Origin: a virus
Lineage: Duplodnaviria; Caudoviricetes
DNA length: 62,882 bases
Strand: one strand, 5' to 3'
Virus record (IMG/VR): IMGVR_UViG_3300036715_004481
Span: 1 to 62,882 of that record
Shown here: positions 753 through 5,439 of the stretch, piece after piece
Numbering within the stretch: the first letter of the stretch is position 1
How the letters are laid out: each line of letters opens with the position of its first letter
The notes under the pieces: generated by a model
What the model saw: the letters and a program-made list of their open reading frames with translations, nothing else
The model's database searches: none
What the model was told of the DNA's origin: nothing
Position numbers and translations under genes: made by a program

Positions 753-1250
753 ATGAAATATATTAAAAAATTTGAAACAATAATAAGTAACTCATCTAAT
801 GATGCACAAAATCATCCGTTATATGAACTAGCTAAACATATAGAAACTATTCTAAAAAAAATTAAAAATATAGATAAATTTGAAAAAAGTATCACTAGAA
901 TATATTTTTCAAAAAAACGAGAAAATATGAACATAACAATAAATTATAGTTGCGATGGATATAGGTTAGTTGATATAGAACTTATAAAATTTGAAAATAT
1001 GAACAATGTTGGCATGAGAGTTGAAACATATGAAAAATATCGAAATATAGATGATATGAGAAACACATCTGATGACTTTTTAAAAATACTTAAAGATATA
1101 CTAAAAAGTTACTATACAAGAACAAATAGAGAATCTATAAGATTTGATTTTAATCTTAATGACTTAAATGATATAATGTATAAATTAAATATTGAAGAAA
1201 TTGTAGAAGAACTAAAACTCAGAAAAGACGCAAATAAATACAATCTATGA
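753..1250 (+). CDS. MKYIKKFE...KYNL family small protein
   Basis: N-term MKYIKKFE, C-term DANKYNL; ATGA overlap with next gene. Confidence 0.8.
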   Translation: MKYIKKFETIISNSSNDAQNHPLYELAKHIETILKKIKNIDKFEKSITRIYFSKKRENMNITINYSCDGYRLVDIELIKFENMNNVGMRVETYEKYRNIDDMRNTSDDFLKILKDILKSYYTRTNRESIRFDFNLNDLNDIMYKLNIEEIVEELKLRKDANKYNL

Positions 1251-1738
1251 AATATATTAAAACATTTGAAAAATTACTAAAACATACAGACGAATATGTG
1301 CTAGAACATAAGTTTAGAGCATTCGCTGAAAAATTAAAATCACTATTAATTCTACTTAAAAAGTGTGATGATTTAAAATATTCAACAGTTAGAATATATT
1401 ATGATAGCTATGGAGAAATTAAAATAATATATAATTATAAATATATAGATTTATATACATTTAGATTAATAACATATGATAGACCAACTGGACTAGAATT
1501 GTGTATAATATCAAATTATAGAAAATTTGGTAAAGATTTAATTAGTGTAAACGATACACTACATGAAATATTTGATAATATTGTTAAAAAATATGAGAAT
1601 GAAAGAAGCTTTTATTATCCAAATTCACATGACATTCCTATTACAGATATTAATAACTTGAGTATATTAGATAAAATCTATGACGAAGTCTCTGATGAAT
1701 TTGAATATATAGTAGCAGCAAATAAATACAATCTATGA
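1247..1738 (+). CDS. MKYIKKFE...KYNL family small protein
   Basis: MKYIKTFE ... AANKYNL. Confidence 0.8.
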   Translation: MKYIKTFEKLLKHTDEYVLEHKFRAFAEKLKSLLILLKKCDDLKYSTVRIYYDSYGEIKIIYNYKYIDLYTFRLITYDRPTGLELCIISNYRKFGKDLISVNDTLHEIFDNIVKKYENERSFYYPNSHDIPITDINNLSILDKIYDEVSDEFEYIVAANKYNL

Positions 1739-2028
1739 AATATATTAAAAAATTTGAAAATATAGAAGAAGAAAAATATATAATCTACACATATGGGTTT
1801 GGAGATTTAGTTTTTAATCTTAGACAACGTAGAGAAAGATTCTCATTGGATTTTGATACATTAGATAAAATTAATACTCATAATTACGAAATTGCAAAAT
1901 ATACAATTGAAGAAGCCGATAACGCTGTAAAATACTTTAATAAAAATTATAAAAATAGATTTGAATTTATAATTATTTCAGAATCTGAATTTGAATTAAT
2001 GAACGCAGCAAATAAATATAACATATGA
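1735..2028 (+). CDS. MKYIKKFE...KYNL family protein, near-identical to 2878..3171
   Basis: MKYIKKFE ... AANKYNI; 5 aa differences from the copy at 2878. Confidence 0.8.
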   Translation: MKYIKKFENIEEEKYIIYTYGFGDLVFNLRQRRERFSLDFDTLDKINTHNYEIAKYTIEEADNAVKYFNKNYKNRFEFIIISESEFELMNAANKYNI

Positions 2029-2390
2029 AATATATTAAAACATTTGAAGATATAAACACTGCTGAACCTGAAATTGGTGATTATGTAATAGTATATGATC
2101 AATTTACATACACATCAAATATGATAGAATGGAAAGAATTTATGAATACTCATGTCGGGAGATTAATCAGAAAACGTGATAGTGATATAAATAATACCAA
2201 GAGATTATTATATGATGTAGAATATGAAAATATACCAGAAAATGTAAAAAGAATAATCTTTAAATATAAATTCGACCCAAAAACAAATAAAGCGGTAGAA
2301 AAAGGATTTAATATTGATGAAATTGTGTGTTGGAGTAAAAATAAAGAAGAACTAGAATTAAAATTAGCAGCAAATAAATATAATTTATGA
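2025..2390 (+). CDS. MKYIKKFE...KYNL family protein (IGDYV subtype)
   Basis: MKYIKTFE..EIGDYV ... AANKYNL; resembles ORFs at 21435-22417 and 62101. Confidence 0.8.
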   Translation: MKYIKTFEDINTAEPEIGDYVIVYDQFTYTSNMIEWKEFMNTHVGRLIRKRDSDINNTKRLLYDVEYENIPENVKRIIFKYKFDPKTNKAVEKGFNIDEIVCWSKNKEELELKLAANKYNL

Positions 2391-2881
2391 AACACCTAAA
2401 GACATATGAAATGATAGTAAGTTTTAATACCACAACCAATGAAATATATCCGAAACGAAGTATATTCTATAATTTGTTTAAAAAAATAGAAGAAAATATA
2501 GAATTAACAAAAAATAACGATAATTTCAGAAACTCACTAATATCAAGAGAATATGATACAACTTCAGAAGAATTAAAAATTCAATATGTTGGCAAAAACG
2601 AAATACTTTTTAAATTTAGAATATTTGAAATGATTGAAGACGATGGAACAAATAAATGTAGAATAATAATTAAGAAAAATCCAGAATACATTAAAAGCGA
2701 TGTAAAATATCTATTCAATTTTATATCTGAAAAATTAGATATCTATAAACATAATGTTGAATTTCAAACTATAAAATCTTATGAATTCAATAGAGATAAT
2801 ATCGATGATATAATAAAAAAATTAGAAGGATTCGAAGAATATCTAGAAATAACTACGCAAACAGATAAATATAATCTATGA
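2387..2881 (+). CDS. MKYIKKFE...KYNL family small protein
   Basis: MKHLKTYE ... TDKYNL. Confidence 0.8.
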   Translation: MKHLKTYEMIVSFNTTTNEIYPKRSIFYNLFKKIEENIELTKNNDNFRNSLISREYDTTSEELKIQYVGKNEILFKFRIFEMIEDDGTNKCRIIIKKNPEYIKSDVKYLFNFISEKLDIYKHNVEFQTIKSYEFNRDNIDDIIKKLEGFEEYLEITTQTDKYNL

Positions 2882-3171
2882 AATATATTAAAAAATTTGA
2901 AAACACAGAAGAAGAAAAATACTTAATCTACACGTATGAGTTTGGAGATTTAGTTTTTAATCTTAGACAACGTAGAGAAAGATTCTCATTGAATTTTGAT
3001 ACATTAGATAAAATTAATACTCATAATTACGAAATTGCAAAATATACAATTGAAGAAGCCGATAACGCTGTAAAATACTTTAATAAAAATTATCAAAATA
3101 GATTTGAATTTATAATTATTTCAGAATCTGAATTTGAATTAATGAACGCAGCAAATAAATATAATATCTAA
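2878..3171 (+). CDS. MKYIKKFE...KYNL family protein, duplicate of 1735..2028
   Basis: Near-identical 97-aa copy. Confidence 0.8.
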   Translation: MKYIKKFENTEEEKYLIYTYEFGDLVFNLRQRRERFSLNFDTLDKINTHNYEIAKYTIEEADNAVKYFNKNYQNRFEFIIISESEFELMNAANKYNI

Positions 3172-3250
3172 GTACACCAGATGGGATTTGAACCCACATT
3201 TTCATCCATTATGCACATAAAGTTTAGGAAACTTCGCCAGTACTGGTGTA
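3172..3250 (-). ncRNA. Atypical tRNA-like RNA, anticodon CCT (Arg), no D arm at the normal position
   Basis: ACACCAG/CTGGTGT acceptor, TA-CTGGC linker, GAAGT-TTCCTAA-ACTTT arm, 21-nt ATGTGCATAATGGATGAAAAT, GTGGG-TTCAAAT-CCCAT T arm. Confidence 0.7.
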
Positions 3251-3256
3251 TATTAA

Positions 3257-3284
3257 AAAATCAATCATAATAATGATTGATTTT
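3257..3284. terminator. AT-rich inverted repeat, possible terminator/processing hairpin
   Basis: AAAATCAATCAT-AATA-ATGATTGATTTT. Confidence 0.45.
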
Positions 3285-3292
3285 AGTTTTTG

Positions 3293-3366
3293 TACGCCTG
3301 AAGGTATTCGAAACCCCGACCCTCAGATTAGAAATCTGATGCTCTATCCTGCTGAGCTACAAGCGC
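3293..3366 (-). tRNA. tRNA-Arg(TCT)
   Basis: GCGCTTG acceptor, GCTC/GAGC D arm, TCAGA-TTTCTAA-TCTGA, TTCGAAT T loop. Confidence 0.93.
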
Positions 3367-3422
3367 ATAATATATTTATATTCAAAAATAAATTAAAAGT
3401 TTATAAATAGTAAATATTTTGT

Positions 3423-3509
3423 TGGAGCTGCTAGAGGGATTCAAACCCCCGATGTTCTTTCGAATCTACATTACAAGTGTAGCGCACTCGGTCACTATGC
3501 GATAGCAGC
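3423..3509 (-). tRNA. tRNA-Thr(TGT) with long variable arm, CCA encoded
   Basis: GCTGCTA/TAGCAGC, CTACA-CTTGTAA-TGTAG, variable ATTCGAAAGAACATC. Confidence 0.85.
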
Positions 3510-3521
3510 ATTTATTATTTG

Positions 3522-3592
3522 AGCACCAATTCAGAATCAAACTGAAATTTCTTGGTTACGACGCAAGAGTAATATCATTATACGACAAGTGC
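3522..3592 (-). tRNA. tRNA-Thr(CGT), degenerate (possible pseudo-tRNA)
   Basis: Cloverleaf with T-T mismatch in acceptor and C-C mismatch closing the anticodon stem; loop GTCGTAA. Confidence 0.6.
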
Positions 3593-3597
3593 AATTG

Positions 3598-3671
3598 TTG
3601 ACGGATTGAGAATCGAACTCAAGACTTTTTGCATGTCATACAAACACTCTAACCAACTGAGTTATCCATCA
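3598..3671 (-). tRNA. tRNA-Val(GAC)
   Basis: TGATGGA/TCCGTCA, TTTGT-ATGACAT-GCAAA, TTCGATT. Confidence 0.9.
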
Positions 3672-3678
3672 ATATTTG

Positions 3679-3749
3679 TGTCCCCAAGTAGAATCGAACT
3701 ACTTCCCTCTGCATGTAAAACAGATACGCTTCCGTTACGCCACAGGGAC
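3679..3749 (-). tRNA. tRNA-Val(TAC)
   Basis: GTCCCTG/TGGGGAC, TCTGT-TTTACAT-GCAGA, TTCGATT. Confidence 0.9.
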
Positions 3750-3783
3750 AATTTTTAGTTATTTACATAACTATCTGATTATG

Positions 3784-3855
3784 AGCGACATGAGAATTTT
3801 GAAATCTCGACCTAAAGTTTGGAAAACTTCCACTCTGCCTCTGAGCTAATGTCGC
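3784..3855 (-). tRNA. tRNA-Gly(TCC)
   Basis: GCGACAT/ATGTCGC-T, GAAGT-TTTCCAA-ACTTT. Confidence 0.9.
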
Positions 3856-3868
3856 ATTTTTAATTTAT

Positions 3869-3944
3869 TGGAGCGATAGAAGGTAATCGAAACCTCATCC
3901 TCTGCTCGGCAAGCAAATGCACTAAACCGTTGTGCTACTATCGC
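3869..3944 (-). tRNA. tRNA-Gly(GCC), CCA encoded
   Basis: GCGATAG/CTATCGC-T-CCA, TTTGC-TTGCCGA-GCAGA. Confidence 0.93.
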
Positions 3945-3980
3945 ATTATTTATAATCATTTATATAACTATCTGATTATG

Positions 3981-4056
3981 TGGAGCTTATCGAGAACGAT
4001 TCGATCTGCTTTTCTCATTGCAAGTGAGATGACCACTCCAAGCAGTCCCAAGCCCC
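3981..4056 (-). tRNA. tRNA-Ala(TGC), atypical T loop
   Basis: GGGGCTT/AAGCTCC-A with G3:U70, TCTCA-CTTGCAA-TGAGA; T loop ATCGTTC. Confidence 0.8.
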
Positions 4057-4066
4057 ATTTTAATTG

Positions 4067-4153
4067 TAGAATAGGAGAGATTCGAACTCTCAGTGTCACT
4101 ATGACGCTTGCTTCCAGGGCAAGACCGCTACCTGATTACGGGCATACTACTCT
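4067..4153 (-). tRNA. tRNA-Pro(TGG)-like with long variable arm
   Basis: AGAGTAG/CTATTCT-A, CTTGC-CCTGGAA-GCAAG, variable hairpin GTCA-TAG-TGAC, GAGAG-TTCGAAT-CTCTC; Ser(GGA) reading not excluded. Confidence 0.7.
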
Positions 4154-4162
4154 ATATTTTTG

Positions 4163-4239
4163 AAGTCCTGACGGGATTCGAACCCGCATTCTCATCCGTT
4201 ATGCGCTTATTGTTTAGAAAACAATGTCATTACAGGACC
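4163..4239 (-). ncRNA. Atypical tRNA-like RNA, anticodon TCT (Arg), no D arm at the normal position
   Basis: GGTCCTG/CAGGACT, TA-ATGAC linker, ATTGT-TTTCTAA-ACAAT, 21-nt AAGCGCATAACGGATGAGAAT, GCGGG-TTCGAAT-CCCGT. Confidence 0.7.
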
Positions 4240-4255
4240 ATAATTATATTTTTTG

Positions 4256-4328
4256 TATGGATGGGGATGCTCGAAATCCCGACCACTTGGTCCCAAACCA
4301 AGCATTCTACCTACTGAACTACATCCAT
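4256..4328 (-). tRNA. tRNA-Pro(TGG)
   Basis: ATGGATG/CATCCAT-A, CTTGG-TTTGGGA-CCAAG, TTCGAGC. Confidence 0.9.
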
Positions 4329-4347
4329 GTATTCAATTAAAATTTTG

Positions 4348-4411
4348 TCAGTTGAAGCGGATTCGAACCACTTTGTTACGGACGTCTCATCGCAACTATC
4401 CAACACAACTG
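4348..4411 (-). ncRNA. Short tRNA-like element (acceptor-like stem plus T arm)
   Basis: CAGTTG/CAACTG-A, AGTGG-TTCGAAT-CCGCT, single internal stem GTTGCG/CGTAAC; no canonical anticodon loop. Confidence 0.5.
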
Positions 4412-4420
4412 TTAATTTTT

Positions 4421-4459
4421 AAAAACAAAAAACCCGAAGATTTTTGTGTCTTCGGGTTT
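4421..4459 (-). terminator. Intrinsic terminator between leader ORF and tRNA cluster (attenuator)
   Basis: AAACCCGAAGA-CACAAAAA-TCTTCGGGTTT followed by TTTGTTTTT on minus strand. Confidence 0.85.
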
Positions 4460-4527
4460 AATTTATATTTTATATTATTATATTTTACCATAGAATAACA
4501 TTAGATACAATTTTCCCGAACACACAA
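4444..4527 (-). promoter_or_regulatory. Antiterminator pairing
   Basis: TTGTGTGTTCGGG (4527-4515) pairs at 12 of 13 positions with CCCGAAGACACAA (4456-4444), the 5' arm and loop of the terminator. Confidence 0.8.
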
Positions 4528-4609
4528 CTGGTCTGCCTCCTGCCACTGGAGTGACGGTTGCTGTTGTTGCAGTTGTGGGAACTATCATATTTGTATTAAT
4601 GTTTTTCAT
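4478..4609 (-). CDS. Leader peptide of tRNA operon (43 aa, not in ORF track)
   Basis: MKNINTNMIVPTTATTATVTPVAGGRPVVCSGKLYLMLFYGKI*; codons 10-29 are only V/P/T/A/G/R. Confidence 0.8.
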   Translation of the reverse strand: MKNINTNMIVPTTATTATVTPVAGGRPVVCSGKLYLMLFYGKI

Positions 4610-4654
4610 TGTGTTTAATTTTTATCTTATTATTTGTTATTTTTAATTATAGTG

Positions 4655-4686
4655 CAAAATTACAAAAAGTTTTTTAATCTACCAAA
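4655..4686 (-). promoter_or_regulatory. Bacteroidota-type sigma-A promoter for leader/tRNA operon
   Basis: TTTG-N20-TAATTTTG matches the -33 TTTG / -7 TAnnTTTG consensus. Confidence 0.75.
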
Positions 4687-4762
4687 CTTTTTATTATATA
4701 TATATTTAAAAAAATGTCGTTTTTTTCTATTTTTAACTATTTTGTATTGTTTTTAGTATAAC

Positions 4763-5064: not shown

Positions 5065-5439
5065 TTATAGATTATAACTTCTGATACTTTTTTTATAATT
5101 TTTAACTTGTTTTGTAATATCGGTATCTAAATTAACTTCTGGAACGAACTCTCCCATCTCTTTTTTTTCATCATCAAAATCTTGTGTACCAAATTCTATA
5201 CCCATATCAGACAAATCTAATTTTATAACTTTAAAATCAGGTTGTTTTGATTCATGATATTTATTCATATGTAAATATAGAATTTCATCATTCGGCGAAA
5301 AAACTGTTCCAACACATTCATATCCACAGATTTCACTATCTGCAAAAACATCAATAATTTCATCAATAAACTCTTTTCTATTTATTGCATCAAAATCTTT
5401 ACCATTATAAGTATACGCTTCAAATTTTTTAATCTCCAT
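5065..5439 (-). CDS. MKYIKKFE...KYNL family-like protein
   Basis: MEIKKFE ... IRSYNL. Confidence 0.7.
   Translation of the reverse strand: MEIKKFEAYTYNGKDFDAINRKEFIDEIIDVFADSEICGYECVGTVFSPNDEILYLHMNKYHESKQPDFKVIKLDLSDMGIEFGTQDFDDEKKEMGEFVPEVNLDTDITKQVKNYKKSIRSYNL

Follow-up and report, generated by a model that had tools for sequence, protein, structure and literature searches.

The tRNA gene cluster of the uncultured virus record IMGVR_UViG_3300036715_004481 (Duplodnaviria; Caudoviricetes) is preceded, on the minus strand, by a short open reading frame (ORF) rich in codons for the amino acids that the downstream tRNAs serve, and by an intrinsic terminator. This arrangement most probably represents a ribosome-mediated attenuator of the trp/his type, placed ahead of a phage tRNA operon and exerting feedback on tRNA supply, a reading to which sequence comparison and folding models lead us to assign a probability of about 0.85. 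The anatomy of the element is conserved among its relatives, the critical pairing covaries with the terminator, and the composition of the leader matches the identity of the tRNAs that follow it. An attenuator had already been proposed in a preliminary description of this DNA, and the proposal is supported by conservation, covariation, the codon/tRNA match and folding with masked ribosomes.

The record, hereafter the window (the whole 62.9-kb IMG/VR stretch that was analysed), has a G+C content of approximately 22-26% and an estimated completeness of 9%. It codes for a 1,205-aa sheath-like protein that shares 47% identity with its homologue in LR756501, a 735-kb uncultured phage, is next closest to those of LR745206, LR756502 and LR756504, and shows around 30% identity to those of the Prevotella Lak phages and of a Flavobacterium phage. 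Because of these similarities, the window can be taken as a fragment of a huge phage from a group that presumably infects Bacteroidota. When 2 kb around the locus were compared at the DNA level with a collection of cultured and GenBank phages, only single tRNAs were matched.

The leader ORF was found where the preliminary description had placed it, starting with ATG and coding for 43 amino acids, and its translation contains the predicted stretch of 20 consecutive codons for Val, Pro, Thr, Ala, Gly and Arg only (Table 1). A run of at least 12 residues drawn from these six amino acids is unique in the six frames of the window, leaving aside its own antisense frame, and the same six amino acids make up 26.1% of the residues in window ORFs of at least 200 aa. 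The preliminary description had also stated that these are exactly the amino acids of the downstream tRNAs, with seven matches at the level of codon and anticodon. This is borne out by ARAGORN for Pro, Gly, Val, Thr and Arg, and by a program for six of the seven matches, whereas in both cases the Ala part depends on a fold only. Among the tRNAs called by ARAGORN there is a wobble-cognate anticodon for 16 of the 20 in-set codons (counted over the whole window leader with the five-amino-acid set), the three Ala codons of the run falling outside that set. The Ala-like gene adopts a cloverleaf fold whose anticodon loop has 7 nt, and relatives of the locus have a machine-called tRNA-Ala at the matching position. 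The first tRNA-like element begins about 10 nt past the T-tract, so that there is no room for a promoter between the terminator and the tRNAs.

Table 1. Features of the leader region and tRNA cluster, in window coordinates.
Feature	Position	Strand	Details
Conserved upstream motif	4693..4727	minus	A-run, short core, T-run, alternating AT stretch; candidate promoter/operator
Bacteroidota-type promoter pattern of the preliminary description	4655..4686	minus	-7 box 4655-4662
Leader-peptide ORF	4478..4609	minus	ATG start, 43 codons plus stop (ORF list)
Region 1	4566..4603	minus	5' strands of closed leader hairpin; minimum free energy (MFE) helices
Control-codon run	4523..4582	minus	20 codons; Val, Pro, Thr, Ala, Gly, Arg only
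Region 2	4515..4527	minus	antiterminator strand, 3' part of leader ORF; 12/13 Watson-Crick with 4456-4444
Region 3	4444..4456	minus	terminator 5' arm and part of loop; common to antiterminator and terminator
Intrinsic terminator	4421..4459	minus	stem-loop 4459-4430, T-tract 4429-4421
tRNA cluster	3173..4412	minus	ARAGORN, Rfam, folds
tRNA-Pro	4255-4328	minus	ARAGORN
tRNA-Gly (two)	3869-3944, 3783-3855	minus	ARAGORN
tRNA-Val (two)	3678-3749, 3597-3671	minus	ARAGORN
tRNA-Thr	3423-3509	minus	ARAGORN
tRNA-Arg	3292-3366	minus	ARAGORN
tRNAs found by Rfam only	4163-4239, 3522-3592, 3173-3249; 4075-4141	minus	the last a partial match
tRNA-like by fold only	4343-4412; 3977-4057	minus	the second Ala-like

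The terminator was recovered as described, with a stem of 11 pairs (five of them G-C), an 8-nt loop and a T-rich tail (-15.1 kcal/mol). The proposed pairing between region 2 and the terminator 5' arm was reproduced (12 of 13 positions), and the duplex between the ORF and this arm (-18.3 kcal/mol) was equalled by none of 500 shuffles. In the MFE fold of the window the competing structure is a closed leader hairpin, in which an outer helix joins 4591-4603 to 4497-4510 (this helix, which shows a compensated change in the window, recurs in the RNAalifold consensus of the nine sequences) and an anti-antiterminator joins 4566-4581 to 4513-4528, sequestering region 2.

The predicted switch was seen when a ribosome footprint, its size taken from general knowledge, was masked on the window leader and the RNA was refolded. 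A leader free of ribosomes, or one whose ribosome has its A site at the stop codon, keeps region 2 bound to 4566-4581 and forms 11 terminator pairs. When the A site is placed at codon 12, 15 or 18, there are 12 antiterminator pairs and no terminator pairs, even in the presence of the 3' arm. In the nascent RNA, A-site positions as far as codon 24 allow the antiterminator, which disappears from codon 27 onwards, the switch being obtained with early stalls in the run only. The caveat of the preliminary description, that late stalls could themselves mask the antiterminator, thus holds for an A site at codon 27 or later.

According to the mechanism proposed, transcription would start upstream of 4655 and the 43-codon leader would be translated at once. 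A ribosome running freely through the Thr/Ala/Val/Pro/Gly/Arg run would pass over region 2 (4527-4515), which, masked or re-paired with region 1, would allow the terminator (4459-4430) to form and stop the polymerase about 10 nt before the first tRNA. When charged tRNAs are scarce, the ribosome would stall early in the run, covering region 1 and leaving region 2 free to pair with the terminator 5' arm, and the polymerase would then read into the tRNA genes. Since the run is decoded by the operon's own tRNA products, the circuit would constitute a negative feedback on the decoding capacity for one amino-acid group. Modules of the same kind, each with its own codon run, stand at the head of further tRNA operons and sub-operons of related huge phages. 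Leader translation and the direction of the switch are inferred here from comparison and folding, as is the physiological signal. The natural signal may be poor host supply, host tRNA loss during infection, amino-acid limitation or tRNA cleavage, among which the comparison cannot choose, and any connection with anticodon-nuclease defence is speculative.

Relatives of the same leader were reached through a neighbouring 124-aa protein, which led to two IMG/VR contigs carrying tRNAs for Pro, Ala, Thr, Gly, Val and Arg only, preceded by a homologous small ORF and then a terminator. Exact-pattern scans were then performed, giving five stretches in IMG/VR and 21 in metagenome contigs, seven of which were true; the remaining 14, which are unrelated G+C-richer sequences without a leader, were dropped after inspection. 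A degenerate version of the pattern, run on the reverse strand, recovered those five viral stretches and no others, and the related-locus search gave no match when the 97-aa neighbour or the leader peptide alignment was used as query. The leader family obtained from IMG/VR and metagenome contigs comprises nine distinct sequences (the window and eight others), all of which have kept the ORF with its ATG, frame and stop, together with the terminator and the downstream tRNAs. In the eight other sequences the ORF has 33-36 codons; the ends of the peptide are conserved and its middle varies in sequence and length, remaining rich in Thr, Ala and Val.

The pairing between region 2 and the terminator is also conserved in this family. 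Across the nine sequences, 58 of 63 cells are paired between region 2 and the sequence's own terminator 5' arm (92.1%), and two of the seven pairs are changed on both sides, so that the expected covariation between antiterminator and terminator was found. The covariation score is 0.234 versus 0.160 in shuffles (9 of 500 reach it), and slid controls, in which the partner is moved by one to three columns, give at most 63.5% pairing; one row of the alignment, L010, is off by one column. RNAfold places the region 2:3 helix in all nine sequences when the nascent RNA is folded without the 3' arm. In most relatives the stop codon lies within 15 nt of region 2, suggesting that a terminating ribosome would itself mask this strand.

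These data bear on a different explanation, in which the structured leader, with its three nested helices and antiterminator, would be an RNA switch independent of translation that responds, for example, to tRNA anticodons pairing directly with exposed codons, as in T-boxes, or to a phage or host RNA-binding protein, the ORF being incidental. The RNAalifold consensus of the nine sequences contains the terminator and a long hairpin (outer, middle and apical helices) that spans the whole ORF, with 36 pairs and seven two-sided changes; several synonymous positions are invariant, and the residues conserved at the N and C termini fall on the two outer-helix strands, all of which speaks for such a switch. 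Against it, the six distinct gap runs in the ORF body of the MAFFT alignment are all multiples of three, compared with 4 of 11 past the stop (the count covers the ORF upstream of its variable 3' end, and two further runs split the variable stop region), and both ATG and stop are retained throughout. In addition, the stop lies no more than 15 nt from region 2 in seven of eight relatives and in several leaders of LR756501 and LR756504, where a terminating ribosome would mask it; non-homologous leaders have only the ORF-plus-run design in common; and no T-box or other Rfam cis-regulator reaches threshold. This switch is therefore considered improbable, although it is the strongest of the competitors.

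The non-homologous leaders come from two complete huge-phage genomes. LR756501 contains 66 tRNA matches, arranged in five large clusters and two small groups, and according to ARAGORN each cluster serves a distinct group of amino acids. A short ORF starting with ATG precedes each of the five clusters, its 3' part being complementary to the 5' arm of the following terminator, and none of these leaders shares sequence with that of the window. The leader of the Arg/Thr/Val/Ala/Gly/Pro cluster is rich in exactly those residues, and the other four are rich in their own (Met/Gln/Ile/Glu; Ile/Cys/Asp/Asn/Tyr; Leu; and Trp/His/Phe/Lys/Ser), the Leu leader having seven Leu codons in which all six synonymous codons are represented. 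LR756504 has another grouping of its tRNAs, and its leaders correspond to it (Glu/Ala/Ile/Val/Gly; Leu/Ser/Cys). An automated scan for a short ORF ending no more than 60 nt from a perfect-stem terminator, with an ORF/arm helix of at least 7 bp, recovered the LR756504 leaders and five more that are nested inside two clusters, at 132000-138000 (L034) and 398000-404000 (L035). The nested leaders match only the tRNAs still downstream: Thr/Asn/Arg/Ile/Met and then Arg/Ile/Met in one cluster; Asp/Tyr/Gln/Lys, then Tyr/Gln/Lys and then Lys in the other. The first one to three tRNAs of these two clusters are preceded by plain promoter-like sequences, with no leader. Altogether, 12 tRNA operons or sub-operons in these two genomes have non-homologous leaders with matching codon runs, and by this comparison the phenomenon is much broader than the single reported locus.

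In 13 leader/cluster pairs from three phage lineages, the codon content of the leader corresponds to the tRNA set of the operon that it precedes. Taking as score the summed fraction of in-set residues, the true assignment of eight leader/cluster pairs is the single best of 40,320 permutations (1 of 5,040 when the window is omitted), and for the thirteen pairs none of 200,000 random assignments reaches the observed sum. A leader's own tRNA set ranks first in eight cases and second in three, in two of which it is beaten by a superset or a near-identical set. A wobble-cognate anticodon is present among the called tRNAs of the own cluster for 102 of 125 in-set leader codons. Terminators are present in all 16 loci analysed, and in 15 of these no more than 5 of 500 shuffles give an ORF/terminator-arm duplex as good as the real one, cluster B of LR756501 being weaker (33/500). 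For cluster E of the same genome separately determined terminator coordinates were used (3/500), the automatic terminator pick having given 282/500. The pairing segments of LR756501 and LR756504 differ considerably in sequence and are still complementary over 8-13 bp. The comparison takes in the five large LR756501 clusters but neither the small tRNA groups of that genome (at approximately 228.9 kb and 690.6 kb) nor a further seven sites with tRNAs in LR756504.

Among the 17 scanner matches linked to tRNAs, 8 have their first tRNA 15-45 nt past the terminator, the loci listed for this spacing being L002, L003, L010, L025, L030, L034 (twice), L035 (two of three) and cluster D of L031 (that is, LR756501). 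A further 11 matches (four, plus seven in 131 kb) have no downstream tRNA and, by inspection and without scoring, no matching codon run. Thus, the anatomy alone is not rare, and the specific part is the tRNA link together with the matching run. The window, L006, L021 and cluster B of LR756501 escape the strict scanner because of imperfect stems or helices below 7 bp.

A second alternative is that the promoter, ORF and terminator form an independent small gene, for a micropeptide or a small RNA, lying beside tRNAs that are transcribed from elsewhere or by leaky read-through. These elements do make a complete unit, the ends of the peptide are conserved in the family, and a -7-box-like sequence occurs inside the cluster. 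This possibility is more doubtful still, given that no promoter space exists between the terminator and the first tRNA, that paralogous and distant leader peptides have no common sequence and only their run follows the tRNA set, and that the complementarity to the terminator arm, superfluous for a plain terminator, is conserved and covaries. Lastly, the window run lies in a G+C-rich island (53% at 4510-4569 versus approximately 15-25% in its surroundings) of a 22%-GC genome, and Gly, Ala, Arg, Pro, Thr and Val are the amino acids with G+C-rich codons, so that composition might account for the run, with tRNAs for such codons merely adjacent; this is exceedingly improbable, because A+T-rich leaders elsewhere still match their tRNAs (Ile/Met/Gln/Glu; Tyr/Asn/Asp/Cys/Ile; Lys; Leu/Ser/Cys) and no random assignment was as good as the real one.

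Also speaking against chance, 6 of 19 codons of the leader run end in G or C, compared with 9.8% in long ORFs. A degenerate tRNA or another structured RNA was also considered as the source of the island and was dropped, since no Rfam family scored above threshold, the predicted fold of the 91-nt core is no better than that of shuffles (z = -1.39) and the value obtained over 246 nt (z = -4.35) is owed largely to the terminator; the in-frame indels and the A+T-rich leaders of other clusters also remove this idea.

Several observations weigh against attenuation. In the window, the longest unbroken antiterminator helix is 6 bp (12 of 13 positions, one mismatch) and the stop codon lies 38 nt past region 2, compared with 15 nt in seven of eight relatives, so that termination would rely on the predicted re-pairing of regions 1 and 2. 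In the family consensus only three pairs touch region 2, which lies just 5' of the 3' strand of the outer helix; this helix flanks region 2 and does not overlap it, making the anti-antiterminator less clear outside the window. The close relative L021 has one uncompensated change in the antiterminator helix, and the mask folding is an equilibrium, not a kinetic, calculation. Regarding the tRNAs, neither ARAGORN nor Rfam calls a tRNA-Ala in the window, strict wobble rules leave 4 of the 20 in-set codons of the window leader uncovered, and a -7-box-like match at 3381-3390 (minus strand), 15 nt before tRNA-Arg, could be an internal promoter; such matches occur in the window at chance frequency (52 versus 47 expected). 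Elsewhere, the two leaders for a single amino acid have low scores by the fraction measure (Leu in 4th place, Lys in 7th), ORFs separate the terminator from the tRNAs in some loci, where the first tRNA is found at +185 to +1176, and the scanner found no tRNA-linked match over 25 kb around the tRNAs of Lak-A1.

The promoter of the leader transcript could be either of two elements. The Bacteroidota-type pattern of the preliminary description is present, although it is not enriched (12 matches versus 8.4 expected in the window); its downstream -7 box is invariant in all nine leader sequences, whereas the upstream box is not conserved. The second element, an A-run/T-run motif, has a single match in the window (4708-4727), is also found upstream of the leader in relatives, and is likely to be a phage-specific promoter or operator. 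In LR756501, where the motif lies 25-52 nt ahead of the leader start, its pattern occurs at seven sites versus none in a reversed control. Four of these sites precede leaders and three precede other genes, for which reason a leader-specific role was rejected; the site of the fifth leader (cluster B), read by eye, misses the pattern, and no match to the pattern was found in LR756504.

Within the window cluster, ARAGORN calls seven tRNAs and Rfam finds ten above its cut-off and one below. Two of the Rfam-only genes (4163-4239 and 3173-3249, both on the minus strand; 33-35 bits) are tRNA-like paralogues with a long variable region, and in place of the D arm no more than 4 nt are aligned by Rfam. 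Further copies occur at L001 9193-9270 and LR756501 363030-363105, with around 80% identity to the copy in the 735-kb phage, and their anticodons, read by eye from the Rfam alignment, would be for Arg codons. Many of the Pro, Gly, Val and Thr tRNAs are 85-91 nt long with a long extra arm, which is unusual for these amino acids (L001 10281-10948; L002 9840-9930 and 11520-11699; window 3423-3509). Another tRNA-like sequence, at 4066-4152 on the minus strand, scores 24.6 bits, below the Rfam cut-off, and folds with a 5-bp anticodon stem and a 7-nt loop that by eye contains a Pro anticodon preceded by C instead of the usual U. One published study proposes that changes in the anticodon loop let phage tRNAs escape host nucleases. 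A perfect A+T-rich hairpin with a T-run after it was seen by eye at approximately 3255-3283 (minus strand), in the gap that separates tRNA-Arg (3292-3366) from the final tRNA-like gene (3173-3249); it was skipped by the terminator scan (fewer than three G-C pairs) and may end the operon before its last element.

Other genes are associated with these operons. A 222-225-aa protein is encoded inside attenuated tRNA operons of three relatives (L001 8301-8978, L010 4172-4849 and L030 9458-10123), and its only match is to the class II aminoacyl-tRNA synthetase core (Pfam PF00587, 30.7 and 38.8 bits); a tblastn search for it in the window gave no match. LR756501 contains a bL12 homologue (L031 19463-19831, minus strand) with the Pfam L12 C- and N-terminal domains (69.7 and 35.8 bits, respectively). 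Its gene follows the leader terminator and precedes the Ile/Cys/Asp/Asn/Tyr tRNAs, so that co-regulation with these tRNAs would be expected. The window cluster is also flanked by six small paralogous ORFs in tandem (753-3171, plus strand; 5065-5439, minus strand) that have N- and C-terminal motifs in common, including two near-identical 97-aa copies (1735-2028 and 2878-3171). The C-terminal motif also ends several other small proteins of the window and its relatives, and the one ORF of the array that was tested against Pfam gave no match.

Ribosome-mediated attenuation is well known from the trp, his, leu, thr, ilv and pheA operons of enterobacteria, in which a short ORF contains regulatory codons, the RNA adopts mutually exclusive folds, and the stop is placed in such a way that an unstalled ribosome prevents formation of the antiterminator. 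The phage leaders have in common with these systems the short ORF with its codon run, the mutually exclusive antiterminator and terminator folds (the predicted anti-antiterminator being clear in the window only), and the stop placement. They differ in that the genes regulated are tRNA genes and the molecule sensed would be of the operon's own product class, in that up to six amino acids are represented in one run, and in being phage-borne, reused within a genome and nested in operons. The window does not belong to the corresponding Rfam leader families (His_leader 20.6 bits versus a cut-off of 49; Thr_leader 18 versus 55). The pheST attenuator of E. coli, with its pheM leader, controls an aminoacyl-tRNA synthetase and is closer in that a component of the translation apparatus is under ribosome-mediated attenuation, the operons of the relatives also holding the synthetase-core-like ORF and bL12; pheST differs in being a protein gene, responding to one amino acid, and being cellular instead of viral. 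T-boxes, which control synthetases, transporters and biosynthesis genes, bind uncharged tRNA directly through a conserved fold and without a ribosome. The likeness to them is that tRNA status would decide terminator read-through and that a codon-like specifier matches the regulated gene, and no T-box is found among the 28 Rfam matches of the window at E values up to 10. Many clustered tRNAs, as here, are a feature of large phages of the Lak/LR7565xx group.

The preliminary description knew of no attenuator governing phage tRNA genes, and the literature agrees as far as its searchable full text goes: no description of leader-peptide attenuation of tRNA genes was found there, in phages or in cells. 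In the main texts of the Lak and huge-phage papers, the terms "attenuat-", "leader" and "terminator" are absent, and the accessible text of a premature-terminator survey contains neither "tRNA gene" nor "tRNA operon".

With somewhat less confidence than for the locus itself, a wider picture seems to us the better guess. Huge Bacteroidota-type phages would sort approximately 45-66 tRNA genes by amino-acid group and place each operon or segment under its own attenuator, which lists the tRNAs to come. The result would be a genome-wide, codon-resolved homeostat that switches on exactly the limiting phage tRNAs whatever the cause of the shortage (poor host supply, loss of host tRNAs induced by the phage, or cleavage by anticodon nucleases of the host), with bL12 and the minimal class II synthetase-like proteins as co-regulated riders.

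If this interpretation is correct, tRNA supply in these phages would be demand-driven, not constitutive, which bears on the old question of why phages carry tRNAs. Classical attenuation would be extended to stable-RNA genes and to viruses, through modular reuse in which the same terminator module is combined with a swapped codon run. Each leader would be a natural reporter of one tRNA group and, as such, an experimental handle; the leaders could also help to annotate tRNAs that programs miss, such as the Ala-like gene, from their expected identity, and may serve as portable codon-specific sensors for Bacteroidota.

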